The notes under the pieces were generated by a model. The model ran no database searches. It saw nothing but the letters and a program-made list of their open reading frames with translations, and had not been told where the DNA came from. This document shows positions 4,201 through 54,872 of a stretch of 64,000 nt of DNA, piece by piece. Position 1 is the first letter of the stretch, and each line of letters starts with the position of its first letter. The stretch is from Torpedo marmorata (Eukaryota): positions 72,168,001 through 72,232,000 of the forward strand of contig OZ360238.1 in the NCBI GenBank assembly GCA_977017645.1. The letters are read 5' to 3'. The translations under genes and the position numbers were made by a program.

Positions 4201-5748
4201 TGATTTGAAGTCGCTAACTATCAGAAGTAACTGGATAAATGCAAAAGCGAGATTAGATTAAACTTGGCATTTCAGTTCCTTGTTTTCGATTTCCAACCAG
4301 AATTTCCTAGTTTAACTTCAACATTCCTTCTTGCACAGGCCATGGCCAATTAAATTATAACACTCTGAACCTTATTTGGTGCAATATATTGTGTGACAGA
4401 ATCAACTTCACAGAGATGCTCCATATTTGTGGTTAAATTTTTTGAAACATTGTAACATCCATGATGTTGACTTTAGCAGGCAAAAAATAAAATTTCCTTG
4501 TTCAGTATCCTGACCCTCTTGACCAATTTACAAACTGAAATCCTTGGTCTATTTTTGTTCAGATGTTTTCAGCAATTAGATGACCCTGAGCAGAGGTTTA
4601 TCATTATATCAGATGCCCAGTACAAGAATATATTTAATCTTTAATATGTTCTTTCTATCTTTTTTAATGTGAAGAAACCTCTTTAGAACATGGGTATGTA
4701 AGGATATGATCCTATCCAACACTGTTGAGGAATTTCAATATCACTGCGAAAGTGGTGTTTGTGGAAATGTTTTAACCTAATGTGGCCTGGTTGACCATAA
4801 TGAAAGAACAGAAGGATAAGATGCACATTAGTCTTTTAGCTTAATGCATTGCAGCTGTGTTCTTGCATATATTACTGACTTATTTTCTGCTTCCAAAATG
4901 ATGGTGTGCTCCTTTAAGGAGGATTGGTTTTTTCCTTTTAGCTGATGTCCATTAAAATCTGAAAAGCCATGTGTTAACATATAATGTAAAATATTTGTGC
5001 ATTATTAAACATTAGTAAGCTTAGCTTAGATCTTTGATCTTCTTATATTTACAATATCTTTTTGAAGCATAGCTACAATAAATAGTTACAACAGTCAATA
5101 CATTTCTAAAGCAGCAAAACAAATCAGATTTAAAAAGTATTGTTTCAATTAACCTAAAAAAAAACTGCCTTTCTTTTGCCAAAAGCCTTAGTTTTTGTTG
5201 AAATTTTTAGATACTCTATCTTGATTAGAAGGTCACTAACAATTCATTCATTTATCATTTCAATATTATACCTGGCATACTCCTGACAAAAATCATAAAT
5301 TAACACATAGATATTCACATTGGATAAATGTTTTAAATTGTATTAGCTAAGCATAAACTGATATAAAATGATGTAAAACTGACACAGGCATCGGGAATAA
5401 TTTAGTGTGGCTTCTTTGTTCAGAATTGCAAATATTAATAATCAACAGAAAAAGAAGCAAAAGCCCAAGTGTTAAACTTCTGTTTTCTGCAGTGTTGACA
5501 AAAAGGTGAACGTTTTTATTTGATGGTTGGAAATTAAGGCCAGGCTGTTTTATCTGTGTGTGTGTAAAACTGGTATTTAATCATTTTATTCTTTTTATTT
5601 CCATAGTCAAGAAATAGAGCTGTGAAGCCAATGGAATATTAAATCTAAAGAGTTGTTGTTATTTTGTAATGAAATTATATTTACATTTCTGTGCATTGCT
5701 AAAATCCTATACAGACTTAACAGAACCTTTTTGTTTTGTACATTAGGA

Positions 5749-7918
5749 ATGGAGGAAGCAAGTTTGTGCCTTGGTGTATCTTCAGCAGTGCCTGAAGCTG
5801 ATGTCCAGCTTAACAAACCAGTACTAAATGGCCAGTATCCAATAACCCAGAAACTGCATCAGTTGACAACACAACTGGGACATGCCTTTCCAGATCTCCA
5901 GAGCAGACAAAATCCAGAGGAGAAAGCAGCAATTGGACTAGAGGAAAAACGTCACCCAACAGTGGCCAACCAGCCAATCAGTAATCAAATGACCCTGCTG
6001 GCAAATCAGCTGAATACAGACATTGATGCTAATTTAGGTATGAATGGGAGAGTTGATTTACAGCACTTCTTAAATGGACAGAACCTGGGGATAATTTCAC
6101 AGATGAATGGCACAGAAGACGATGCAAAAAAATCGAGGAAGTACCCGTGCCCCATTTGTGGTAAGCGCTTTCGGTTTAACAGCATTTTGTCTCTCCACAT
6201 GCGCACTCACACTGGGGAGAAGCCATTCAAATGTCCTTACTGTGATCACAGGGCAGCTCAGAAAGGTAACTTGAAGATTCATCTCCGCACTCACAAACTT
6301 GGGAATCTTGGAAAAGGTCGTGGGCGGGTCAGAGAAGAAAATAGGCTTCTGCACGAGCTGGAGGAGAGGGCCATCCTGAGGGACAAACAGATGAAGGGCG
6401 GCCTTGGCCAGCCAAGGCCTGATGGGAAACAACATCAGGCTGTGATTAGCTCCAGCAGCTTGCCTTTACCAGCCAGTCAGAGCATCTCTGATGCCTCCAA
6501 TGCAATTAGCAGCTCCAAGCCAGCAGGTACACAGGAAGAACCAGCAGTGACTGCCGTGGGATTCAGGTGCACCTTTTGCAAGGGGAAGTTTAAGAAACGT
6601 GAGGAGCTGGACCGTCATATCCGAATCCTCCACAAACCTTACAAGTGCACTCTTTGCGAGTTTGCTGCCTCACAGGAGGAAGACTTGATCAGTCACGTGG
6701 AAAAAGCACACATAACCGCTGAGTCCGTGCCAGGTCAAGGGTCAAGTGGAAATGGAGAGCAAACCAGCAATGAATTTCGCTGTGAGGTCTGTGGCCAGGT
6801 CTTTAGCCAGGCTTGGTTCCTGAAAGGTCACATGCGAAAGCACAAGGATTCTTTTGAACACAGCTGTCAGATCTGTGGACGACGATTCAAGGAGCCCTGG
6901 TTTCTCAAAAACCACATGAAAGTCCATCTCAACAAACTGGCTGTAAAGAACAAGTCTCAGAATGACCCAGAAGTTCCCGAGAGTCTAAACAATATGGTGC
7001 AAAACTCCCACTCGAATGTGTATTCAGCATATGTATCTTGTTTACAGAGTGGTTTTTTATCACCTGATAAATTGAGCTTAAACGAACAAAGCCAACTTCA
7101 TTATAATAAAGCAGAAATGGCGAGGAAGGAAAAGGAAATGCTTGGAAAGCTATTAGTGCCTGTGAGCAGTGGAACACGCGGTTTAGTGGAAGGAGACAAG
7201 CGCTCCTTGCTGGGATGTTTGACCCTGGCACCTCCTTTAAAGGCGAGCTGCATGGAACGTTTGCAGGCAGTAGCCCGTGTGGCCGAGTTTGATCCGGTAA
7301 ACAGCTACCAGGCCTGGCAGCTGGTGACAAGAGGAATGGTCATGGAGCAGGCTGCTCTACCTAAGAAGCACCTGCATCCAGGTCAGGAAGAAAATCTGCC
7401 CAGTGCAGTTGCCAGTGTTGACAAGGACAAAGGAGAATTTGTCTTTGCAGCTGGAGACAAATCAAAACAGGAACTAGATGGGGACCTGATTCAAAGCCCT
7501 AAAAGAACCAACATTAATGACATTTCTGGTAAAGATGATCTAATGGGAAGCAGGGAATTCATGGCACAAGGAATGAATCAAGGCCTGGAATATAAAATTG
7601 CTGGATTAGGACAAAACCATGGAACAATGAAAGAAAAGCCCACTGAATGCCCAGACTGCGGTCGAGTGTTTCGAACCTATCATCAAGTCGTTGTTCATTC
7701 CAGAGTGCATAAGAAGGGAAGGAAACCTGGAGATGAAGTTGTCCAGGGTGCTTTAGATGAACGGCGTGGCTCTGGAAGTGACCAAGATTCCCAGTCTGTG
7801 AGCAGATCAACCACACCTGGATCAGCCAATGTAACAGAGGATAACATGACTGCAGGCAGCTTCTCTGTGACAGGAAGTACACAGGAAGATAGTCCAAACC
7901 CATCATCTCCGTCTTCAG
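5749..7918 (+). CDS. ZNF536: Zinc finger protein 536, first coding exon (partial CDS, 723 codons + 1 nt)
   Basis: Starts MEEASLCLGVSSA, the recognisable ZNF536 N-terminus; seven C2H2 fingers (CPICGKRFRFNSILSLHMRTH, CPYCDHRAAQKGNLKIHLRTH, CTFC, CTLC, CEVC, CQIC, CPDCGRVFRTYHQVVVHSRVH); acceptor ...tacattAG at 5745-5746; donor CAG|GTAACA after 7918. ORF-track extensions 5653-5748 and 7919-8013 are read as mostly intronic. Confidence 0.96.
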
Positions 7919-10900: not shown

Positions 10901-12030
10901 GCATTCAGTTCTCCAAATGGGTCTGAAGGATCCCAGTGTTGCTAAAATCATTGGTAGCAGAGGTTGTCCACTAGTTCAAAGGTTCTGAGAATCCAAGCTT
11001 CAATGGGACTCAAAGGTGCAGCTAACAATTCTCTTGAATGGTGCAGGAGGTGGTGGGAAGGTCGGAGATTGCCATACCTCTCCCCTAGTATGGCCATCTT
11101 CCAACCAGAAAACCAAGTAAATTCTGAAAACACAAGCCGATTACTAGGTCAGATGAACTGGCCTATCACGAACAGGAACAATGATCCTCTCCTTGCTGCT
11201 TCTCAGAGTTTCATTTTAATAGTGCAGGAAGTTGGATGTATGCTGATCCATTAATACCTTTCAGAAGCACGGGTAACAACTTGAAAATGATGAAGTAATT
11301 ATATCAAGCCGTACAAATATCTAAGAGACTGCGAAAGAAGGTGTACACTCTTTCTTGTACACACACTTTTGGACACCACAGCAGGTAGTTTCATTTACAT
11401 TGTGAGCATGTTGCAGAAGTATTGGAAGCATTGCCACATTTGAGACAGTTCAAGATATTTGTTGTTATGAGATGAACAGTACAGTGAATAGAACAAATAA
11501 AACCATCAGTTCTTCAGCTCTGTTTATTTGTAACTTTCCTTTCCTAAATGTGGCCACTGAACAGTTTAACAAAACTTAATTCATTTTAAAATACCCTTTT
11601 TTGACATTGATGTTTAAGCATAGAAGAATACCTATTAAAATAGACTGCTTTGATTGAGGATAACTGGGGTTAGAGATAGAATCAAATAGTTATGAGTAAA
11701 ATTGTGTATGCAACATGCAGGAAAAGCAGCTTGCTCTGAAGGTGAAAAGGATGAATGGATCAATGTGCATGTAAAATGGCATCAATATACAAGACTACAT
11801 CTGTACTGGGATTTTTTTTAGCTGAAAATTATGACTTTGAGTTTGAATAGTAGTGGATTTCATGTGGTAGCAATAAGGGAAAAACTTGGATTATCGTGGA
11901 TACCAAAGTTGCAAGAGATATTTCAGTTAGATGATCACATTACTAATGATCTATTTCAGTTTCTTCTTTAGCTCCATAATGTTTCTCACTCAACCCAGGC
12001 AATACATTGAGCAATCAAAGTTCCACAATT

Positions 12031-14219
12031 TTTTTTTATTTTTTTATTTTTTTTAAATAATTTTATTTAACTTTTAAAATCACAGAATACATAAATCAAA
12101 AATAGTATATCATCAAAAATACATGTGATATATTACCTCCCCCCCTCCCACCCTCCCCTCCCCAACCCTCCCACACTATTCTAATAAAAAAAAAAGAAAG
12201 AGAAAAATAAAGAGGTATTAGTTAAAAGAAAAAAAGAATAGAATGAATAATAAAGTTTTAAGAGTTAGTATGAGGAGAAAACCATTACAAGCTAACTCTA
12301 CTTATATATTGGAGGTTACATTTGTCAGCGTTACCAACTTTTAGAGAATTAATTCATACCCATGATTCTCATATATGGGCTCCAAATTTTCAAAAAGAAA
12401 TGATATTTATCTCGTAAATTATATGTAATTTTTTCCAATGGTATACAAGAACGTAATTCTGCATGTAATCTGTCTTAAATTCAAATCTAAATCTGATTTC
12501 CAAGTAATAGCGATACATTTTTTCGAAATCGCTAACACAATTCGTAAAAATTCTATTTGATACATATTTAATCTATTTCTAATACTAATCTTTTTAATAT
12601 CTCCAAATAAAAATATCATAGGATCCATTGGAATCATAGTATTGAAAATTCTATCTAAAAAATCCTTAACTTTAGACCAAAAATTGTGAATTTTTAAACA
12701 TGACCATGTACAGTGTACAAAAGAACCTATTTCATCTTTACACCTAAAACACATATCTGATAATACCGGATTAAATTTCTTTAATTTTTTAGGTGTTATA
12801 TATAATTGATGAAAAAAATTATATTGTACTAATCTATATCTAACATTAATAATTTTAATCATACTCAATTTACATAATTCTTTCCAATGTTGTTCATCTA
12901 TACTAATATTTAAATCTGACTCCCAATTTAATCTAGATTTATGTAATCCTACTTTAGGCATCTTTTTTTGAAGTAGTTTATACATTTGTGATATAAATTT
13001 ATTAACATTTCCATTAGTAATTAATAACTCTAATCCATCTTGTCTAGGAGATATTAATTGATTCCCCAATTTCTCAACTAAAAATCCTTTAACCTGATAA
13101 TAAGCCAAAATCGTATTATCCATTATTCCAAATTTTTCTTTCAACCTAGAAAAAGTAACAAATCTTCCCGCCTCAAAGCAATCTTTAATCTTCTTAATTC
13201 CTTTTTGATACCATAATTTTAAAAATTGATTATCAATGGAAAAAGGTAACAATAAATTCTGATATAATGGCATATTTAAAGATATTAATCCTTTTCGTCC
13301 TATTTCATTATCTAACTGAGTCCAAATTTCCAATAAATGTTTAATAATTGGCGATTTTTTCTTTTTAATTAATAATAATTTAGAATTCCATTTATAAATA
13401 ATATCTTCCTTATATCTTTCCCCTATATTACTCAATTCTATATTAATCCAAGCAGTATTTTTAGTTAAATCAAAAAATTCATTAATAAATTTTAATTGTG
13501 CTGCCTTATAGTAATATTCAAAATTGGGAAGCTGTAATCCACCCATTTCGTATTCCCAAGTTAATTTATCTATACTTACCCTTGCTAACTTTCCTTTCCA
13601 TAAAAACTTTCTAATAATGATTTTTAAATCTTTGAAAAATTTTTGAGGAATACCAAAAGGTATAGATTGAAAAAGATATTGAACTCTTGGAAAAATATTC
13701 ATTTTAATACAATTCACTCTTCCCATTAGAGTTATAGGTAAATCTTTCCAGTTTTCCAAATCTTTCTTTATTTTCTGGAATAAAGGTATATAGTTTAATT
13801 TATATAAATTTTCCAATTTTGTATCTACTTTAACTCCCAAATATTTAATTGCTTCTTTAGCCCATTTAAAATTTGTAACTTCTTTACATTTAGTATAATC
13901 TCCTTGAGATAACGCCATTATCTCACTCTTATCCGAATTTATTTTATATCCAGATATCTCACCATACTCCCTCAATATCTTATCTAATTGTTGAAGCGAT
14001 TCAATAGATTTCGTCATATATATTAATACATCATCTGCAAACAAACTAATTCTGTGTTCTTCTGCACCTACTTTAATCCCGTTTATATTAGTATCTTTCC
14101 TAATCATTTCAGCCAGCGGTTCTATTGCCAATACAAACAAAGCAGGTGACAAAGGACATCCTTGTCTTGTTGATCGTGTCAAACAAAATTTAGATGATAT
14201 TTGACCATTTGTAATTACT
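12031..14219 (-). mobile_element. 5'-truncated L1-clade LINE (ORF2 RT to CCHC end, 3' UTR, poly(A))
   Basis: ORF 12419-14242 with TRQGCPLSP, FADD, YLGV, GGLQLPN, CFRC..HCTWSC; T-rich tail from 12031; TSD aaagttccacaatt at 12017-12030 and 14220-14233. Confidence 0.93.
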
Positions 14220-14564
14220 AAAGTTCCACAATTGATACCCATTTAACAAAATCTATTGGGATGGTAATGAAATCTCTCGTCTTAAGGGCGAGATGAAGGG
14301 AAGGGTGGTGGTGTGAAGAAGGAGAATAGACAGAAGAGAAACTCTCCAGATTTCCACTTCATGCTCAGCAGCACCTATTCCACCAACATTCCATATTGAG
14401 GGAGAACAGAATCAACCTCATAATCGGGGACATACAAATAGAGAGCATGGGAAGAATTTCTTTACTACCCAATTTGAAGCTCGTGTTCAATGTTTAAAGC
14501 AGTACAATTTATTTTCATTAACTACCCACCCCTTCCCCCACCCCTGCCAGATTCTACTATTGAT

Positions 14565-26807: not shown

Positions 26808-29800
26808 TGTTACGAACTAACAGACCTTGCTAGTACTAACAAAGGAACAGCAATGGAAAATTCACCATACAATGGTAAATTAAAAATAATAGTTTTTATT
26901 AAACTATGAATAACATAACATTTCTTACTTATCTCTAAACTTAACTAACTTAAACCCCACTATGTGCAAATGTAAATGTGTGAGTGTTAAAGTCCAAACT
27001 ATTTCAGTTTAAACTTGAGTCTGAAAAGTCAATTTTAAAGTCCAGTTTCAAACTTCTTGTTGAACTTCAGGATCCCTTTAAATTGTGGTTCAGAAGTAAT
27101 TATAAAGCAAGCGTGAAGCCCCCGATTTCTTTCAAACTCACACGTCTTTTGATGAGTTGTCTTTCAGAGAGATATTATTCTTCATGCGAGTGATTTCACA
27201 AACTCCCTCTTATCTTGCCTAAGAGTTCTGGAGTCTGTTTTCCACGATGATTTCTTTCTTAATCAAAAGAAACACACGAGGCTGCCCTCTTTTCTTAGAG
27301 GCAGTCGGAAGTGGTCTTACTTATTTAAAAGCCACTTATGTTGTGTACCTCCTATGATAAGGATGATACAAGACAGAACAATTCTGTCTTTCCAGGATGT
27401 CAAATTTTCTTAAACTGATTCCTTTGTCTCTGAGTTTGATAATATATTTCTTGCACATCTCACATGTCACATGGTATGTGACATCATTTCTGTCTTTGAA
27501 GTTCATAATGTCTTCTTCACACTTATGTGCTAAAATCATCTCATTCCACTTCGACTCCGTAATGTCTATCCACATGGACATAGAATGGATCTGCGTTTAC
27601 ACAGGTGCTTCTGAGCCAACACCTATTGTTTTCAGTATCTCAAGAACCATCATAAAGATTGGGAAGTTGTAAACCACCCATTTCGTAATCCCAGGTTAAT
27701 TTCTCCATACCTACTCTAGCCAACTTTCCTTTCCATAAAAAATTCCTAATAATTAAATTTAAATCTTAATTTTTTTTTAGGAATTTCATAAGGAATTGAT
27801 AGAAAAAGATATTGAATTCTTAGAAAAACATTCATTTTTATACAATTTACCCTTCCTATTAAAGTTATAGGTAAATCCTTCCAACTTTCTAGATCATTTT
27901 TAATGTTCCTAAATAATGGTAAATAATTTAATTTATATAAATTAACTAATTTTGTATCTGTTTTTATTCCCAAATATTTAATTCCATCATTTGACCATTT
28001 AAATCGTGTAATTTCTTTACATTTATTATAATCTCCTTTTGTCAATGCCATAATTTCACTTTTATCAGAATTAATCTTATAACCAGATATTTCCTCATAT
28101 TCTCTCAATAAAACATTCAGTTGTGTAAAAGAAGCAATAGGATTTGTCATGTAAATCAATACATCATCTGCAAATAAACTAATTTTATGCTCTTCTTTTC
28201 AAACTTTAATACCTACAATCTTAATATCTTGTCTAATTAATTCTGCTAAAGGTTCTATTGCTAAAATAAACAATGCTGGTGACAAAGGGCATCCTTGTCT
28301 AGTTGACCTAGTCAACAAAAACTTTGAAGAAATTTGTCCATTTGTCACCACTCTGGCAGAAGTTTCTTTATATATAGTTTTAATCCAATTAATAAATGTA
28401 GTTCCAAAACCAAATTTTTCCAAAACTTTAAATAAATAATTCCACTCTAATCTATCAAAAGCATTTTCGGCATCTAACGTTAATACTAATGCTAATCCCT
28501 CTTTCTTTTGTGCCACATTTATTAAACTAATCAAAATTATTATAAAGCAGCTCAATTAAAATTTATTAACAAAATGTTTGATTTAGGAAAATCTTCTGCT
28601 TGGATTAGAATAGAACTAAATAATATAGGAGAAGATTTGAAAGAAGAAGTTATTTATAAATGAAATTCTAAATTATTATAAAGATGAGGTAAAAATTCTC
28701 CTATTTTAAAACATTTGTTAGAAATATGGAATAAAGTGGATAGGGAGATAGGAGGGAAATGGTTAATTTCTCGAAAAATGCCTTTATGTCAAAATAAACT
28801 TATTCCACCTACTATTGATAATCAATTATTTAAAATTTGGTTTCAAAAAGGAATTAAAAAAATAGATGATTGTTTTGAAGCTAGTAAATTTATTACTTTT
28901 CAAAGAATGAAAGAGAAGTTTAATGTATTAAGTAATACACTTTTTGCTTATTATCAAATTAGAGCATTTCTAGTTGAAAGGTTGGGTTATAGTTTGACTT
29001 TACCAAGACAAAGTGAATTGGAATTATTAGTTACTAATGGAGGTGTAAACAAATTTATTTCTCAAATGTATAAACTGTTACAGAGGAAAATGCTTAAATT
29101 AGGAATTCATAAATCAAGATTAAAATGGAAATCAGATTTGAAATGTAATGATGGATGAGGAAGATTGGAAAGAACTATGTAAACAAAGTATGGCGAAGAT
29201 TATTAATGTTAGATATAGGTTGGTGCAATATAATTTTTTACATCAATTATATTTAACACCTAAGAAATTAAAGAAATGTAGTAGAGAGGAAGTTTCTTTT
29301 GTACACTCTGTGTGGCTTTGTCCAAAGATAAATGATTTCTGGTTGAAAGTTTTTAGACAAAGTATTAAGAATTACACTCCCAATGGATCCTATGATATTT
29401 TTGTTTGGTGATATTAAAAAATTTAGTATTAAGATGAGATTAAGTATGTATCAAATAGAATTTTTGCGAATTGCTTTAGCTGTTTCTAAGAAATTTATTG
29501 CTATTACATGGAAATCTGACGTAGATTTAGGGTTAAAGAAATGGCATGCAGAATTTCGTTCAGCTATACCACTTGAAAAAATTACTTATAATTTACGTAA
29601 TAAATATCATTTCTTTTTGAAAATATGGAGCCCATATGTAAAAACTGTCGGTTTAAGGACTTGAAGATCTCTGCATATCAGATCTGACTGGCGAACCTGT
29701 GTTCCACAATAAAATTAGCTTATACTTGTTTTTTTTTAGATTGACATTCTCCTTACTTAATCTTTTTCCTTCTTTCTTTTTTTTTCTTTCTATTTTATTA

Positions 29801-35838: not shown

Positions 35839-37016
35839 AATATCCCCCAAGACACCTCTGTTTCAAAATGAACTTATATCTGTGATTTTAGGTAATAAAA
35901 TATGGAACGTTTGGTATCAGAAGGGTGTTCGATATATTGAAGACTGCTACGACAAAGCTTATGTCCTTTGAACAACTCAAAGATAAATATGATTTGTCTA
36001 ATAGAACCTTTCACTGTTTTCTCCAATTAAGATCCTTCTTGCGAGAAAGGTGGGGTCCTGCAATGACCCCACCTATAAGCAACGAGGTAGAACAGTTACT
36101 TCGACTGGGAAATGCACTCAAAATTATATCCAGAATGTATTTTGTGCTCCAAAGTGAAAGCCCTAAGCCGGGTATACATAGATCGAGGGAGAGGTGGGAG
36201 TCGGACTTAGGTACGACAATTCAGGAACGTTGCTGGTCAGATTGGTGTAGGAATAGTATGACGATGGTTATTAACGCTAGATATAGATTGGTCCAATATA
36301 ATTTCTTGCACCAACTATATCTCACACCACAAAAGTTACACAAATCAAAATCCGAAATATCAGAAATGTGTTTCAGATGTGGTGGGGAAATTGGAACTTT
36401 CCTGCACTCCACTTGGTCCTGTGCAAAGGTACGACCCTTTTGGTATGATATATCTAATATACTAACCAGAATTACAGGGGTAGCCTTTCCACTGGACCCG
36501 GAGTTGTATCTCCTAGGAAATCTAATGGACATAAGCTACAAATTATCCAAATTCCAAATTCAATTTGTGCTAGTTGCTTTGTCCGTAGCAAAAAAAATGC
36601 ATAGCAGTCACTTGGAAGTCCGACTCCCCCCTTCAAATCACTCGATGGTCAGCAGAAATGCACTGCTGTATTCCCATGGAGAAAATTACATATAATCTCA
36701 GGAATAGATACGGTACATTTATAAAGGTGTGGCAACCATACCTGGAATATATTGGGGTCCAGTTGTAATTCAAACCCTAACGTACAATACAATATAGCAT
36801 AGAAATATTTAACGGTGTGGCGCCTCCAAAAAGATTGAAAAATCAATGTAAGCACTGACGGTACGTTTAGTTTTTCATTTTCTTTTGTATGTTTTATTTT
36901 CTTTTTTCAGTTGGGGGAGGGAGGGAGAGTTTAATAATAATGTATATAGTTGTAATTTGTATATTTTCTGTTTATATTGTGGACTTGAAAAATAAAAAAA
37001 TAAAATATTTAAAAAA
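35839..37016 (+). mobile_element. 5'-truncated L1-clade LINE, second subfamily
   Basis: ORF 35925-36695 with RYRLVQYNFLHQLYLTP and CFRCGGEIGTFLHSTWSC; A-rich tail; perfect TSD aagaccacattcaaat at 35823-35838 and 37017-37032. Confidence 0.92.
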
Positions 37017-40304: not shown

Positions 40305-43300
40305 ACTTACAGCACAGAAACAGGCCAGTTCGACCCTTCTAGTCCATGCCGAACACATTCTCCCACCTAGTCCCACTGACCTGCACCCGGCCCATAACCC
40401 TCCACACCTCTCTCGTCCATATACCTATCCAACTTTTCCCTAAACATTAAAATTGAACCTGCATCTACCACTTCGGCCGGAAGCTCGTTCCACCCTCCCA
40501 CCACCCTGAGTGAAGAAATTCCCCCTCATGTTTCCTCTAAACTTTTGCCCCTTCAATCTCAATCCATGCCCTCTTGTTTGAATCTTCCCCTCTCTCAATG
40601 GAAAAAGCCTGTCCACATTGACACTATCTATCCCCTTCATAATTTTAAATACCTCTATCAAATCACCCCTCAACCTTCTACGCTCCAGGGAATAAAGTCC
40701 CAGCCTGTTCAACCTTTCCCTGTAACTCAAACCCAGAAACCCAGGCAACATTCTTGTAAATCTCCTCTGCACGCTCTCTATTCTGTTTATATCCTTCCTA
40801 TAATTCGGCGAACAAAACTGCACACAATATTCCAAATTTGGCCTCACCAATGCCTTATACAACTTCAACATGACATCCCAACTCCTATATTCAATACTCT
40901 GATTTATGAAGGCCAACATACCAAATGATTTCTTCACCACCCTATCTACGTGTGACTCAATTTTCAGGGAATTATGTACCAGAATTCTTAAATCCCTCTG
41001 TTCTACTGCACTTCTCAATTGTCTTCCATTTAACATGTATGACCTTTGCTGATTAATCCTACCAAAATGTAGCACCTCACATTTATCAGTATTAAACTCC
41101 ATCTGCCATGTTTCCGCCCACTCTTCTAACAGTCCAATATCCCCCTGCAAGCTTTGATATCCCTCTTCACTGTCCACAACACCACCAATCTTCGTATCAT
41201 CTGCATACTTACTAATCCAATTTACCACCCTATCATCCAGATCATTAATATATATGACACACAGCAATGGACCCAGTACCGATCCCTGAGGCACTCCACT
41301 AGTCACCGGCCTCCAATTTGACAAACAATTTTCCACCACGACTCTCTGGCATCTCCTATCCAACCATTGTTGAATCCATTTCACTACTTCGTCGTTAATA
41401 CCTAATGCTTGAACCTTCCTAACTAGCCTCTTATGCGGAACCTTGTCAAATGCCTTACTAACAACATGCCTTATAGACAACATCCACAGCCTTCCCCTCG
41501 TCAACCTTCTTAGTAACCTCATTGAAAAACTCTTATGAGATTTGTCAAACATGATCTACCACAAACAAAACCGTGTTGACTACTCCTAATCAATGCTTGT
41601 CTTTCCAAATAACTGTATACACCATCTCTAAGAACACTCTCCATTAATTTACCTACCACCGATGTCAAACTCACAGGCGTATAATTTCCAGGTTTACTTT
41701 TGGAGCCCTTCTTAAACAGCAGGACAACATGAGCTACCCTCCAGTCCTCAGGCACCTCCCCCGTGGCCAGTGACATTTTAAATATTTCTGTCAGAGCCCC
41801 CACTATTTGTACACTAACCTCCCTCAGGGTCCTTGGGAATATCCTGTCAGGACCTGGAGATTTATCCACCTTTATACTCTTTAAAATAGCCAATACTACC
41901 TCCTCATTAATCTTTATATTATCCATGACCTCCCTGCCAGATTGCCTTACTTCACCTGGCTCAATATTCATTTCCTTTGTAAATACTGAAGAAAAAAATT
42001 CATTTAAAATCTCCCCCATCTCCTCTGACTTCTCACATAGCCTACCTGTCTGATCCTCAATGGGCCCAATTTTATCCCTCATTATTCTTTTGCTTTTAAT
42101 GTACCTGTAGAAACCCTTTGGATTTATTTTTACCTTGCCTGCCAAAGCAGCCTCATATATCCTTTTAGCCTTTCTAATTTCTTTCTTAAGATTTTTTTTT
42201 TTTTACACTCCTTACATTCCTCAAGGACCTCATCTATTCCCTGCTGTCTATACCTGTTGTACACATCCCTCTTCCTCCGAACCAAATTCCCAATATCCTT
42301 TGAAAACCAAGGCTCCCTATATTTTCTAACTCTTCCTTTAATCCTCACAGGGACGAACCGACTCTGTACTCTCAAAGTTTCCCCTTTGAATATCCTCCAT
42401 TTATCTGTGACATCCTTCCCTAAAAATAAATTATCCCAATCCACACCCTCTAAATCCTTCCTCATCTCCTCGAAATTTGCCTTATTCCAATCAAGAATCT
42501 CAACCTTAGGCCCAGCCCTATCCTTCTCCATTATCAACCTAAAACTAATGGTATTATGATCACTAGACCGAAAGTGTTCCCCAACACAAACCTCTGTCAC
42601 CTGACCTATCTCGTTCCCAAATAGGAGATCCAATACTGCCCCCTCTCTCGTCGGTTCTTCTATGTATTGATTGAGAAAACTTTCCTGAACACATTTGACA
42701 AACTCCAACCCATCCAGCCCTATTTATGGGCGTCCCAGTCAATGTATGGAAAGTTAAAATCACCTATAATCACCACCTTATGTTTATTACACATATATTC
42801 TATCTCCTTACAAATGTCCTCCTCTAATTCCCTCTGCCCATTCGGTGGTCTATAATACACTCCCATTAGTGTTTTCATGCCTTTCCCATTCCTCAATTCC
42901 ACCCAAATAGCCTCACTGGACGAGCCCTCCAATCTATCCTGCCATAGCACCGCTGTAATGGTTTCTCTAACAAGCACTGCGACTCCTCCACCTTTTATCC
43001 ACCCTGTTCTATCACGCCTGAAACAACGGAATCCAGGAATATTTAGCTGCCAATCATGCCCCTCCTGCAACCAAGTTTCACTGATGGCTACAATATCATA
43101 TTTCCATGTATCAATCCATACTCTAAGCTCATCCACCTTTCTTACAATGCTCCTTGCATTGAAATATATACACTTGAGAGAATGTCCCCCACATACACTC
43201 TTTGATTACTCTCTCCTTCATTAACATTAACATTCTGGTTCCTCTCTTCCTTCAAATCTAGGTGTTCTTCTACCCTACTCTCCGCATTCTCATTCTGATT

Positions 43301-44775
43301 CCCACCCCCCTGCCAAACTAGTTTAAACCCTCCCCAACAGCTCTAGCAAACCTGCCTGCCAGGATATTGGTCCCCCTCCAGTTCAAGTGCAGCCCGTCCC
43401 TTTTGTACAGGTCAGACCTTCCCCAGAAGAGATCCCAATGATCCACAAATGTGAACCCCTGCCCCCAGCACCAACTCTTTAGCCATGCATTCATCCTCCA
43501 CATCTTCCTATTCCTACCCTCTTTAGCGCGTGGCACAGGCAGCAATCCTGAGATTACCACCCTCGAGGTCCTGCTTTTTAACTTTCTTCCTAACTCCTTA
43601 TATTCTTTCTTCAGGACCTCATCCCCACTTCTTTCTATGTCATTGGTCCCCACGTGGACCATGACACCTGGCTGCTCGCCCTCCCCCTCCAGAATGCTGT
43701 GCACTCGATCAGTGACATCCCTAACCCTGGCACCTGGAAGGCAACGTACCATCCGGGAGTTCCGATCTCGTCCAGCAAACCTCCTATCTGTTCCTCTAAC
43801 CAGCAAGTCCCCAATTACAAAAGCTCTCCTCTTTTCCCCCCTTCCCTTCTGAGCCGAGGGGCCAGCCCCCGTGCCAGAGACCTGACCCCCGCGACTTGTC
43901 CCTGGTAGGTCCCCCCTCCAACAGTATCTAAAGCAGTATACTTATTATGGAGGGGAACGGCCATAGGGGTTCCCTGCACTGTCTGTCTCCCCCCCCCCTT
44001 CCCTTTCCTCACAGTCACCCAGTTAGCTGACTCCTGTCTATTTGGGGTGACTGTCTCCCTGAAACTCCTTTCTATGACTACCTCTGCCTCCCTCATGATC
44101 CGAAGTTCATCCAGCTGCAACTCCAGGTCCCTAACTTGGTCTCCCAGGAGTTGCATCTGGATGCACCTTTTGCAGGTGTGGTCATCAGGAACATTTGTGA
44201 TGTCCCTGACCTCCCACATCCTGCATTCGGTACACATGACTGCCCCAACTGCCGCCATAACCCCCTCTTAACTAAAACTAGATTAAATAGGAATAAACTT
44301 ACCAACCTTACCGGCAGCACTACCTCAGCTTCTTCTCTCCGAAGCCTCTTGAGCCAAAGCCTCAGAGCTCCACTCCTTCCCTGTGCCACTCACTCACTGG
44401 CCACTCCCTCAACTTCCCTTCCTGTTATAGGTCACTGCTAATTGACTCAAATAACCAATTTCTTACTACTACTGATCACCACTTAACCTAGCCCTTTGCC
44501 CTCCATGCCATTTTTAAACTAAATTAACAATTCCAAAATTACTCACCAAGCACCAGTCACCAGTCGCTCCTCCCACTCCAACACTCCAACGCAACTGAAT
44601 AGACCGAGGCCCGAAAAAGCGCCCTTTTTAAACTAAATTAACAATTCCAAAATTACTCACCAAGCACCAGTCACCAGTCGCTCCTCCCACTCCAACACTC
44701 CAACGCAACTGAATAGACTGAGGCCCGAAAAAGCGCCCTTTTTAAACTAAATTAACAATTCCAAAATTACTCACC
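40305..44775 (-). mobile_element. Near full-length CR1 (HER1-like) LINE, frameshifted
   Basis: ORF1: CTECRMW..CKRC, coiled coil, SGNH esterase (CLPGARV, HVGTND, DGLHLN); ORF2: APE (ISETWL, YYRPP, GDFN, SDH) and RT (PGPD, QHGF, KAFD, GVPQGSVLGP, YADD); broken over several frames. Confidence 0.95.
44511..44775 (-). repeat. 114-bp tandem repeat (2.3 units) at the CR1 5' end
   Basis: Units start at 44511, 44625 and 44739; I see one mismatch between the two complete units. Confidence 0.92.
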
Positions 44776-51236: not shown

Positions 51237-52703
51237 TGCATAACACAACCACTTCAAAAAACGAAGATAGCAGGCATATGGAAACATGCAAGTTCCCTTC
51301 CAGGCCACTACACTCATGTAAATAATTCAACTAACACTCTGGTTAACAGTGGTCCTGAAGAAGTTGAAAGCTGTGTGTTCAGTTCTGTAAATCTGTAGAA
51401 AATTAAGTGATTGTAATTAGATTCTCTCTTGTTAGAGATGGCTGTTGCATGCTACTTCCATGGCATGAATAACAATTGACACTTATCAAACCAACTCTGA
51501 TCATTTTTCAAGTCTTGCTGGATGTGGTATGGACTTCTTCATTTTCTGAGAAGTTACAATTAGAACTGAACATTGCGCAAACATCCACATTCCTGACTTT
51601 ATAATGGAGAAAAGATCATTAATGAACCAAGTAAATATGGTGACGACAAGGCCACTGCTTTTAGAACTCCTGCATTAATATCCTGGGACTGAGATGAATG
51701 GCTTCCTTTGTACTGTGTTTGATTCCAGCCCATGTAGTTTTCTTCCTTATATTCACCATTTTTTCTTGAGATCCTTAATTTACTTTTCTATAAATTGCTA
51801 ACTCGATGTGAAGGGTAGTTACTCTTGCATCATCATTGGAATTTAGCTCATCTATCTGTGTTAGGATCAAGATTATAATGGGATCTAGAGCATAAAGAAG
51901 GGCCTGTACTGTGCTGTAATGTTCTATGTTCTAAATGTTCTATAATGAGCCTGGCTTGAACCAAAATCAACTATCAGTGAGTAGGTGCTGATTGGTACCA
52001 GTGTCTATGACACCTTCCATCACTTTGCTGGTGATTGAGAGAAAATTGATGGGCTATAAATAGGTGTAATAGACTTTTTTGTTGACAGAACACACCTGGG
52101 CACTTTTTCACACTGCCATGTAGATGTCAGAGTTGTAATTACTGGAAGAGTGCTAGTCCAGCAGGTATAGGGCAAAAATCTAGTCCTACAGATGGGATGC
52201 GTCACAATGTCTGGCTATTTCTTCATTAGTTGCTGATGTGGTTCAGATCCTAATAAAGTTCCACCTAACAAACAATATTCTTAGCTTACCCTCCCTTGGT
52301 TTTTAACTGATGTTTCTCACAACTGTTCTCCTTGCCTCTGAAACCTGTCAAAGTAACTTTCACCTATTTATCTTACTAAATTTGTTGATTTTTTGGTCAA
52401 ATTTACACATGACCTGTTTTGCTGAGTTGAAAACATCACTTTGGATTTCTTACCATCCTGTGTACATTCAGAATTATTGGTTAACTGGATCACTTCCACC
52501 ATGCTTGTAATTGTTGGTTTTAAAACTTGCCTGAATTTCTGTGTGGAATGAATGAATTGGCATGGGGTACAGAATTTATTTCAAGACAGCAACGCTTCTT
52601 TCGGACTGATACATGTATATACCGTATATTTCGGCGTATAAGTCGACCGGCGGATAAGTCGACCCCCCTTTTTCAGCCTCATTTTAATGGTTTTATGGTA
52701 TAT

Positions 52704-53135
52704 CCGGCGTATAAGTCGACCCCAAAAATCTCGATGCCTGAGATGTTGCGCATTGACCGGCGTATAAGTCGACCCTAAAAAACGCGATGCCTGAGATGTT
52801 GCGCATTGACCGGCGTATAAGTCGACCCTAAAAAAACGCGATGATTGAGCTGCTAGGCGTTGACCGGCGTATAGGTCGACCCCTAAAAAAACGCGATGAT
52901 TGAGCTGCTGGCCGTTGAATGACGTATAGATCGACCCACACCGCTCGAGATCATTGAGCTGCTGGGCGTTGACTGGCGTATAGATCGACCCATAACGATC
53001 GCGATCATTGAGCTGCTGGGCGGTGACCGGCGTATAGGTCGACCCATAACGATCGCGATCATTGAGCTGCTGGGCGGTGACCGGCGTATAGGTCGACCCA
53101 TAACGATCGCGATCATTGAGCTGCTGGGCGTTGGC
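52704..53135 (+). repeat. Left subterminal array, ~8 units of 53-54 bp containing the TIR core
   Basis: ccggcgtata(a/g)gtcgacc variants at 52704, 52757, 52810, 52864, ~52918, 52973, 53027, 53081. Confidence 0.9.
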
Positions 53136-53152
53136 TGGAGGTGATTGTTATC

Positions 53153-54490
53153 ATGGAGGCTCCATTGAAGGCTCAATTGAAACGACGAAAGTATGAGGCG
53201 AGTTTTAAATTGAAAGTAATAGAAATGGCAAAGAAAACCAACAACTGTGCTGCTGCAAGAAAATTTGGTATATATGAGAAGTTGGTAAGAGATTGGAGGA
53301 AGAAAGAAGAGACTTTAAGAAAAATACCAAAAAGGCAATGTTCCATGAGAAGAGGAATCACTCGTTGGCCAGAGTTGGAAAATCATGTAGCAGCATGGGT
53401 ACGTGAACAGAGGCAAGATTGCTACATAGTCACCCGAAATAAAATAAGGACATTTGCACTGAACTGGGCAAAGTCGCACCCAGAACTCAGCAATGATTTT
53501 GAAGCTTCAGTAGGCTGGTGCAACCGTTTTATGAACAGGAAAAATCTGGTATTACGACAAAAAACTAAAATTGCTCAGAAACTACCAAAAGATCTTGATC
53601 ATAAAGTTGTAAGTTTTCACCAGTTTATTTTACGTAACTGGCAGAAACACAAGTTTGCATTGGCAAATATTGGAAACATGGACGAAACCCCCATGAATTT
53701 TGACATGATAGGCAATAGAACAGTGGAATGGAAAGGTGTGAAAACTGTGCAAACGAGGAGTACAGGACATGAAAGGACCAGGTTTACCGTGGTGTTATCG
53801 TGCATGGCCGACGGGACAAAGTTAAGACCCATGGTAATCTTCAAACGCAAATTTAAACCTAAAATAAAATTCCCTGCAGGTATTTTTGTACATTTTCATG
53901 AAAAAGGATGGATGGATGAAAATGGTGTAAAACTATGGATAGACAATGTGTGGAACAGGCGGCCAGGCGGTTTACGCAAGGAACGGAGTTTGCTGGTCTG
54001 GGATATGTTTCGTAGCCACTTAACTGAGAAGACTAAAAGTACATTAGCACAACATAATACTCACATGGCGGTTATCCCGGGTGGTTTGACGTCTATATTG
54101 CAACCTCTCGATGTCTGCTTGAACAAGCCATTCAAAGACCACGTGCGTGAAGAGTGGAATACATGGATGTCGAGTGCAGAAAAATCATTTACAAAAGGCG
54201 GGGCAATGCGTGCTGCATCGCTTGATGTGCTGTGTGACTTCGTGCTCAAGGCATGGGACAAAGTGAAAGTAGAGACTGTAATAAAATCGTTTAAAAAGTG
54301 CGGTATCTCTTGTGCAATTGATGGTACGGAAGATGATTTATTGTGGGACACTGACGACGAAGCTGAAGCCGCCTCATCAGATACAGACTGGGACCCGTAC
54401 GATGACTGTTTAAACAGTGAGACCCCGGATGTGCTTGCCGAGATCTTTGCCTCAGACGATGATAGCGAAAGTGATTTTGAAGGGTTCTAA
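53153..54490 (+). CDS. pogo-type DDD transposase, 445 aa (Brinker-like DBD, CENP-B/Tc5 HTH, DDE_1, acidic tail)
   Basis: Uninterrupted ORF from atcATGg; KRRKYEASFKLKVI, FEASVGWCNRF; triad NMDET / VWDMF / QPLDV with 35 residues between D2 and D3. Confidence 0.93.
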   Translation: MEAPLKAQLKRRKYEASFKLKVIEMAKKTNNCAAARKFGIYEKLVRDWRKKEETLRKIPKRQCSMRRGITRWPELENHVAAWVREQRQDCYIVTRNKIRTFALNWAKSHPELSNDFEASVGWCNRFMNRKNLVLRQKTKIAQKLPKDLDHKVVSFHQFILRNWQKHKFALANIGNMDETPMNFDMIGNRTVEWKGVKTVQTRSTGHERTRFTVVLSCMADGTKLRPMVIFKRKFKPKIKFPAGIFVHFHEKGWMDENGVKLWIDNVWNRRPGGLRKERSLLVWDMFRSHLTEKTKSTLAQHNTHMAVIPGGLTSILQPLDVCLNKPFKDHVREEWNTWMSSAEKSFTKGGAMRAASLDVLCDFVLKAWDKVKVETVIKSFKKCGISCAIDGTEDDLLWDTDDEAEAASSDTDWDPYDDCLNSETPDVLAEIFASDDDSESDFEGF

Positions 54491-54552
54491 ATGTCTTGTT
54501 GTTTTCAATTAAAATGTCAATGAAAATTTGTTGCAGTCGGGTTTTTTTTTGG

Positions 54553-54675
54553 TTTTTCAGGGGTCGACTTATACGCCGAATCGTGTTTTCAGGGGTCGAC
54601 TTATACGCCGAATCGTGTTTTCAGGGGTCGACTTATACGTGGAATCGTGTTTTCAGGGGTCGACTTATACGCCGG
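54553..54675 (-). repeat. Right subterminal array, 4 units of 32 bp
   Basis: ttttcaggggtcgacttatacgccgaatcgtg repeated. Confidence 0.9.
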
Positions 54676-54872
54676 ATCGGCGTGAACTCGATTTTGAGCT
54701 GAATTTAAGGTCTCAAAAGTATATCCGGCGTATAAGTCGACCCCCATTTTTTGAGACATTTTTGAGGGTTTCAAGGGTCGACTTATACGCCGAAATATAC
54801 GGTATATATATATATATATATATATAAAAATATGTGATACACATTCCTTTCAAGACAGCAACACTTGCAACA

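Follow-up and report, generated by a model that had tools for sequence, protein, structure and literature searches.

The window analysed here, a 64-kb stretch of the Torpedo marmorata genome, contains a Passer/pogo DNA transposon of 2,181 bp (52622-54802) in an intron of ZNF536. The large coding exon upstream of this intron, whose donor site is at 7918/7919, matches ZNF536 of Pristis and Hemitrygon at 94–95%, and the next exon lies outside the window, 52 kb beyond the element. The two flanking ZNF536 exons (G000:C51:72173725-72175920 and 72274768-72274929) are on the same strand as the element, in accordance with the sense insertion proposed in a preliminary description of this DNA. The features of the locus are the following.

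5725..7918, plus strand: large coding exon of the host gene ZNF536, preceding the host intron (96% identical to ZNF536 of Narcine bancroftii)
52620..52621, no strand: left TA target-site duplication (single-TA paralogous empty sites in sister copies)
52622..52648, plus strand: left terminal inverted repeat (TIR), 27 bp, with a CCGTA end (25 of 27 letters shared with the TIR of Latimeria PasserC; Table S1, PMC9976928)
52622..52775, plus strand: left arm, in common with a dmrt1-carrying non-autonomous derivative (98% over 156 bp to derivative L040)
52632..53152, plus strand: CpG-rich left subterminal array (17-bp TIR motif seven times, with at most 2 mismatches, mostly in 53/54-bp units)
53153..54490, plus strand: transposase open reading frame (ORF), 445 aa, no stop (Foldseek of the predicted model to the Mos1 transpososome, E 2e-9)
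53183..53320, plus strand: Brinker DNA-binding domain (BrkDBD), aa 11-56 (PF09607, E 1.6e-15)
53366..53557, plus strand: HTH_Tnp_Tc5 DNA-binding domain, aa 72-135 (PF03221, E 5.5e-12)
53639..53641, plus strand: codon of the private change R163W, a CpG transition affecting an almost invariant arginine (comparison with genome copies and homologs)
53681..54112, plus strand: catalytic triad DD35D, D177 (53681), D284 (54002) and D320 (54110) (DDE_1, E 4e-29)
54554..54744, minus strand: right subterminal array (the TIR motif in 32-bp units; one further copy of it points the other way)
54625..54802, plus strand: right arm, in common with the dmrt1-carrying derivative (96% over 180 bp to L040)
54776..54802, minus strand: right TIR, 27 bp, complementary to the left TIR
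54803..54804, no strand: right TA duplication, the first unit of a (TA)n tract

The perfect TIRs and the TA duplication described earlier were found at exactly the given coordinates, with 27 of 27 letters complementary between the two ends (E 1e-7 within the window) and a TA on both sides. The abundance of undecayed CpG is equally evident, the observed-to-expected ratio being 1.18 in the element versus 0.32 in the rest of the window. The copies of the 17-bp motif in the subterminal arrays are likely to be extra, putative transposase-binding sites, and sister copies vary in length (2021-2215) because the number of array units varies. Two signal-like stretches were also seen, namely, a splice-acceptor-like site in the left arm (52662-52676), soon followed by a stop, and a poly(A)-like hexamer downstream of the ORF (54507-54513), which is canonical in related organisms (54510 T>A); a gene-trap effect of the element on ZNF536 is conceivable.

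The transposase gene is the only intact transposon ORF in the window, as had been stated, other such ORFs of at least 120 aa being partial or frame-split. Among the other repeats, a near full-length CR1/L2-type LINE (40440-44267, minus strand) is split into at least six frame pieces, with an esterase-like part of ORF1, an endonuclease and a reverse transcriptase (RT) as read off the translations, and L1-like RT fragments are located at 12419-14242, 27746-29158, and 35892-36695. An AT-rich L1-like LINE of this kind is also the insertion site of many among the 30 best Passer copies found elsewhere in the genome.

The 445-aa ORF is unbroken and starts in the good Kozak context claimed for it (A at -3, G at +4), with a basic stretch near the N-terminus of the translation. 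BrkDBD, HTH_Tnp_Tc5, and DDE_1 all exceed the Pfam cut-offs, and the catalytic triad is complete, as described; D284 and D320 are separated by 35 residues, and the same spacing is seen in 106 of the 116 homologs having both residues. The AlphaFold model (mean pLDDT 76) has its best fold matches in the Mos1 transposase (PDB 4u7b, 5hoo, 3hot), with which it shares the DDD-type catalytic fold and the TA target, whereas the identity is 12–13% and the DNA-binding domains and the D-D spacing are different; a sequence search of PDB with the transposase gave no match. The closest outside protein in the protein database is 75% identical. In a tree of 120 homologs, built without outgroup families, the transposase groups with unnamed proteins near those of Pelodiscus, Pleurodeles, and Crotalus.

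The domains, the DD35D spacing and the TIR and TA features bear out the assignment to Passer-like DD35D pogo elements. Like the ray element, Passer and PasserC transposons (PMC9976928, PMC7386202) are 1.6–4 kb long, with a single ORF of 400–500 aa, Brk and HTH DNA-binding motifs, DD35D, TIRs shorter than 30 bp with a CCGTA end, and a TA duplication. Latimeria and Pelodiscus are among the PasserC hosts in Table S1 of PMC9976928, and the Latimeria protein is 67% identical to that of the ray. In contrast, no genome in Table 1 of the same paper exceeds 294 copies in total and 83 intact ones, as compared with 17,063 exact ends in the ray, and the long subterminal motif arrays and the host-gene-carrying derivative are absent from the Passer description in the part of PMC9976928 available to us. 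In its supplement, cartilaginous fishes were found only in the rows of two skates, of which one lacks ends and the other has a 243-aa ORF, and the names Torped, Narcine, and Myliobat gave 0 matches. Rays are rich in Tc1/mariner-type DNA (PMC12361510), and among the papers listed on Passer/DD35D, Pack-TIRs, ray transposons, and dmrt1 duplication no description of a ray Passer family was found. The ray element is a new member of the known Passer family, unusual in its copy number and its dmrt1 derivative.

The target preference was derived from 30 copies, two pairs of which are segmental twins. The consensus is A-N-N-TA-N-N-T, with A at -3 in 28 and T at +3 in 27 copies, as in the Passer PS consensus (PMC9976928). 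A paralogous empty site with a single TA was found for 21 of 29 sister copies and one with two TAs for none; hence, the TA is a true duplication. The window copy's own site is ambiguous because its right TA runs into the (TA)n tract. One copy, L015, is inserted into the internal TA of another copy's TIR.

Copy number and identity, proposed earlier as a check on the element, came out in favor of a young insertion from a family with many intact copies. The exact TA+TIR pattern has 17,063 matches in the genome (control 0), and therefore at least about 8,500 elements are present; based on the ratio of paired to single ends among the first 100 matches listed, we estimate the total at 12,000–14,000. 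An ORF 30-mer spanning three variants has 2,562 matches, and the marker of the window copy's own variant, 194. Of 20 copies with this marker, chosen by position on contig C1, 14 retain both ends, the triad and at least 440 aa of ORF, and six are broken; this yields an estimated 135 intact copies in the window copy's subfamily alone. The best 40 scored matches are all full length (97–100% identity), and the triad-containing ORF is 445 aa long in all 30 best copies that were fetched, which encode 26 distinct proteins. Sister copies of the window element are 0.2–0.5% apart. Among 33 marker copies, the ORFs differ pairwise by 0.47% on average, with seven identical pairs of 528, and identical ORFs occur at unlinked sites (L002, L024, and L060; L012 and L014).

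The distribution of marker copies is uneven, with 29 of the 194 on C1 (5.6% of the assembly; about 11 expected), possible readings being local hopping or chromosome bias. Two pairs of insertions, L002/L004 and L006/L008, are twins on different contigs with 1.5-kb flanks 99.6–99.9% identical, i.e., segmental duplicates or haplotigs.

Compared with its own subfamily, the window copy has R163W, one synonymous change, and K164Q. Tryptophan at position 163 is found in one of 65 genome copies, the window copy itself, and in none of 120 homologs, of which 116 have arginine. The residue lies outside the catalytic triad and, in the AlphaFold model, closes the helix preceding the first catalytic strand. 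The change arose after insertion by a CpG transition and, given the conservation of the arginine, likely reduces the transposase activity of this copy, which makes the sister copies better candidates for activity. Residue conservation is an imperfect guide, since the family spread even though all of it deviates from strongly conserved residues, relative to the 120 homologs, at G90C, T234F, and N387C. Thus, the possibility of an inactivating substitution, raised in the preliminary description, holds in part, through R163W, whereas the ORF, the ends, and the triad are whole. At codons 164 and 241, old-type letters are scattered among young copies (L001, L006, L008, L034), which may reflect gene conversion among them or mutations that recurred.

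The age of the insertion was assessed using three related organisms, A, C, and G, whose single-copy flank contigs differ from the window at 41/2256, 128/2216, and 139/1871 positions (1.8, 5.8, and 7.4%, respectively). These contigs depart from the window at 52621, 52611, and 52617, with 99, 54, and 89 unaligned letters. As these letters do not align to the element, the insertion site appears empty in all three organisms, a reading of the left flank, the right one being masked as a repeat. Together with the small distances between sister copies, this agrees with the claim of a very recent insertion.

An insertion into an intron of a zinc-finger gene might suggest a domesticated or otherwise host-useful gene, similar to POGK or formed by a ZNF536-transposase fusion. 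The sense orientation downstream of the zinc-finger exon and the domain order, which is that of POGK (PMC7386202), are consistent with it, and still we give this explanation almost no credence. Both TIRs and the duplication are present, near-identical copies number in the hundreds, the site appears empty in relatives, and the copy has private damage, whereas a domesticated gene is expected to be single-copy, without TIRs or a duplication, and conserved at an orthologous site. Moreover, the best acceptor-like site (52675) would lead to a stop at most three codons after the ZNF536 exon. Unlike POGK and POGZ (PMC7386202), the ray element is mobile and multicopy, has its ends, and has no KRAB or zinc-finger fusion.

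The transposase ORFs differ from the window copy by 0.2–3.0% and form a graded ladder, in which young and intermediate copies are 1.0–1.6% apart and grade into copies at 2–3% within the same genome; the arms of 20 older derivatives are 76–97% identical. Organisms A, C, and G hold the Passer family with progressively older identity profiles. The closest related organism almost lacks the markers of the young subfamilies (e.g., 53268, 53449, and 53491 differ in more than 99% of the depth of run X1), and hence these subfamilies postdate the split from it. A young insertion thus belongs to an old family passed on by inheritance; an ancient transfer into the ray lineage is still compatible with these data.

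Selection on the transposase was assessed in 63 ORFs, the set with two segmental twins removed, by comparing shared with private changes rather than by placing changes on tree branches. Private changes comprise 101 nonsynonymous and 34 synonymous ones (ratio 0.74), as opposed to 19 and 21 (ratio 0.23) among those common to at least three copies (Fisher p 0.002), and 35 position-sampled copies repeat the contrast. The signal comes from 12 older copies; within the 51 young copies there is no purifying signal, changes shared by at least three copies being five nonsynonymous and no synonymous (p 0.32). On these sequence counts, the shared ORF changes show purifying selection among the older copies only. 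Such a pattern has been argued to need gene products favoring their own element (PMC9073684). Class II elements are reported to be neutral within a genome, and a pattern such as that of the shared ORF changes here (dN/dS about 0.2) is reported for them after transfer (PMC12001565, citing Zhang et al.). Repeated invasions by close variants can produce a similar ladder and purifying pattern.

The recent horizontal invader proposed in the preliminary description is thus disfavored. In its remaining form, the young subfamilies would have come from an unsampled donor and settled atop older related families in the host, and we consider this improbable. The near-absence of young-subfamily markers from the closest related organism, the low dN/dS of the shared ORF changes, which is the kind of pattern described following class II transfer (PMC12001565), and 98–99% identical traces in runs that lack ray flanks (X2, X9, X15) are in line with such an event. 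On the other hand, the young and intermediate copies grade into older ones in the same genome, the three relatives hold older copies of the same family, and no near-identical element with its own flanks was found in a distant taxon (best protein 75% identical; protein database and eight of 23 runs). The low-depth fragments in X2, X9, X15, and X16 (depth 2–17), examined as candidates for horizontal transfer, are likely carry-over, since the alleles in the non-ray fragments are of ray type, the share of element words is 0.00 in a third run of the X2 sample, and in X16, an elasmobranch run, the host SINE has a depth of 55,000 compared with about 5 for the Passer element. Given the X16 trace, the family may be confined to some elasmobranchs. 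Run X8 also covers the ORF; as it can be taken for RNA only by a guess, this cover was given no weight.

The family also includes a derivative that carries a host gene fragment. Forty elements were sampled by exact ends on C1 (30 pairs and the first 10 of 40 single ends), a sample that leans young. Transposase DNA is present in 17 of them, whereas the other 23 all match the 5' UTR of dmrt1 (G000:C2), 22 with both ends and the TA. These derivatives retain about 155 bp of the left and 180–240 bp of the right end around 6–55 units of a 27-bp repeat, which matches the 30-bp repeat (minisatellite) of dmrt1 intron 1; older derivatives L068 and L070 match dmrt1 exon 1 into the DM domain. For a GC-rich inner piece of about 100 bp no source was found, the search for a host source returning only 20 older derivative copies. 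A 26-mer marker of the cargo has 8,065 exact matches in the genome. The nearest derivative pairs differ by 1–4 of about 570 bp, and the left arms of the youngest differ from the window element at 3–4 of 154 positions; with differences so small, the movement of these youngest derivatives is as recent as that of the intact copies. The similarity of the arms suggests that the transposase of the Passer family likely moved them in trans, although some older ones could have been moved by another transposase with similar ends.

With transposon arms on both sides, a target-site duplication, and identifiable parental dmrt1, the derivative has the features of a Pack-TIR. Animal Pack-TIRs (PMC8277862) likewise have TIR arms around captured host sequence, a GC-rich 5' part of a gene, and copies at distinct sites through later transposition. 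The 370 cases reported in 100 genomes are mostly single-copy, and the multicopy families have few copies (PMC8277862); in contrast, the ray derivative exceeds 8,000 copies, shares its genome with an intact autonomous partner, and carries a minisatellite cargo that is expanding.

In L048, L053, L042, and L032, the 27-bp repeat continues the reading frame of the dmrt1 ATG, yielding ORFs of 249–559 aa. A second gene was considered and rejected for these, as they arise from the dmrt1 ATG reading into the stop-free repeat and are likely a by-product. The DM family search gave 87 DM matches among 150 scored, including scattered, mutated DM-domain copies (L075, L076, L079-L082) that resemble the gene at L074; at 12 DM-domain loci, no match to Passer ends was found within the fetched flanks.

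The family may now be extinct, its copies looking fresh through slow mutation in cartilaginous fishes and the window insertion being fixed. Elasmobranch substitution rates are slow, and 0.2% per copy could equal a million years or more. The mean distance between marker copies, the rarity of identical pairs, the six broken copies among 20, and the 26 distinct proteins among the 30 best matches point in this direction. Against it stand the identical ORFs at unlinked sites, the 14 of 20 marker copies keeping ends, ORF, and triad, and a burst later than the split from the closest related organism. We give this scenario slightly less than an even chance; it is compatible with the history preferred below, from which it differs only on present activity.

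The explanation that we consider highly probable is that the window holds a young full-length copy from a long-resident ray family of Passer elements, that this copy is likely impaired, and that the family's transposase likely moved thousands of dmrt1 carriers. Judging by its domains and the repeats, the protein would use its Brinker and Tc5 HTH domains to bind the TIR motif, both at the element ends and within the subterminal arrays. The DD35D domain would then excise the element and insert it at the TA of A-N-N-TA-N-N-T, duplicating the TA; here, site preference and duplication are observed, and catalysis is presumed from family and fold. Successive master lineages replaced one another as the host lineage split, which shows in the 0–3% ladder and the near-absence of the markers in the closest organism. 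The derivative would have kept the two arms, gained from dmrt1 the 5' UTR, a portion of exon 1, and the minisatellite of intron 1, and been copied in trans, a step presumed from the shared arms, the same target site, and equal youth, all of which are observed.

A more far-reaching reading, which we regard as doubtful, is that of a still-active native ray Passer with hundreds of intact transposases, inherited vertically over tens of millions of years under purifying selection and multiplying a dmrt1 cassette at more than 8,000 sites. If it were true, purifying selection would imply that a DNA transposase favors its own element, and effects on the testis-determining gene dmrt1 and on genome size would be possible. 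The synonymous excess in the older, shared variants is relevant to the question whether DNA transposons evolve neutrally in their host. Few active DNA transposases are native to vertebrates, and such enzymes are in demand for gene transfer; the ray family offers many natural intact variants, at most 75% identical to any protein-database entry, of which the window copy is not the one to pick. Finally, an intact enzyme and its ends are at hand for studying how a vertebrate dmrt1 Pack-TIR reached thousands of copies.
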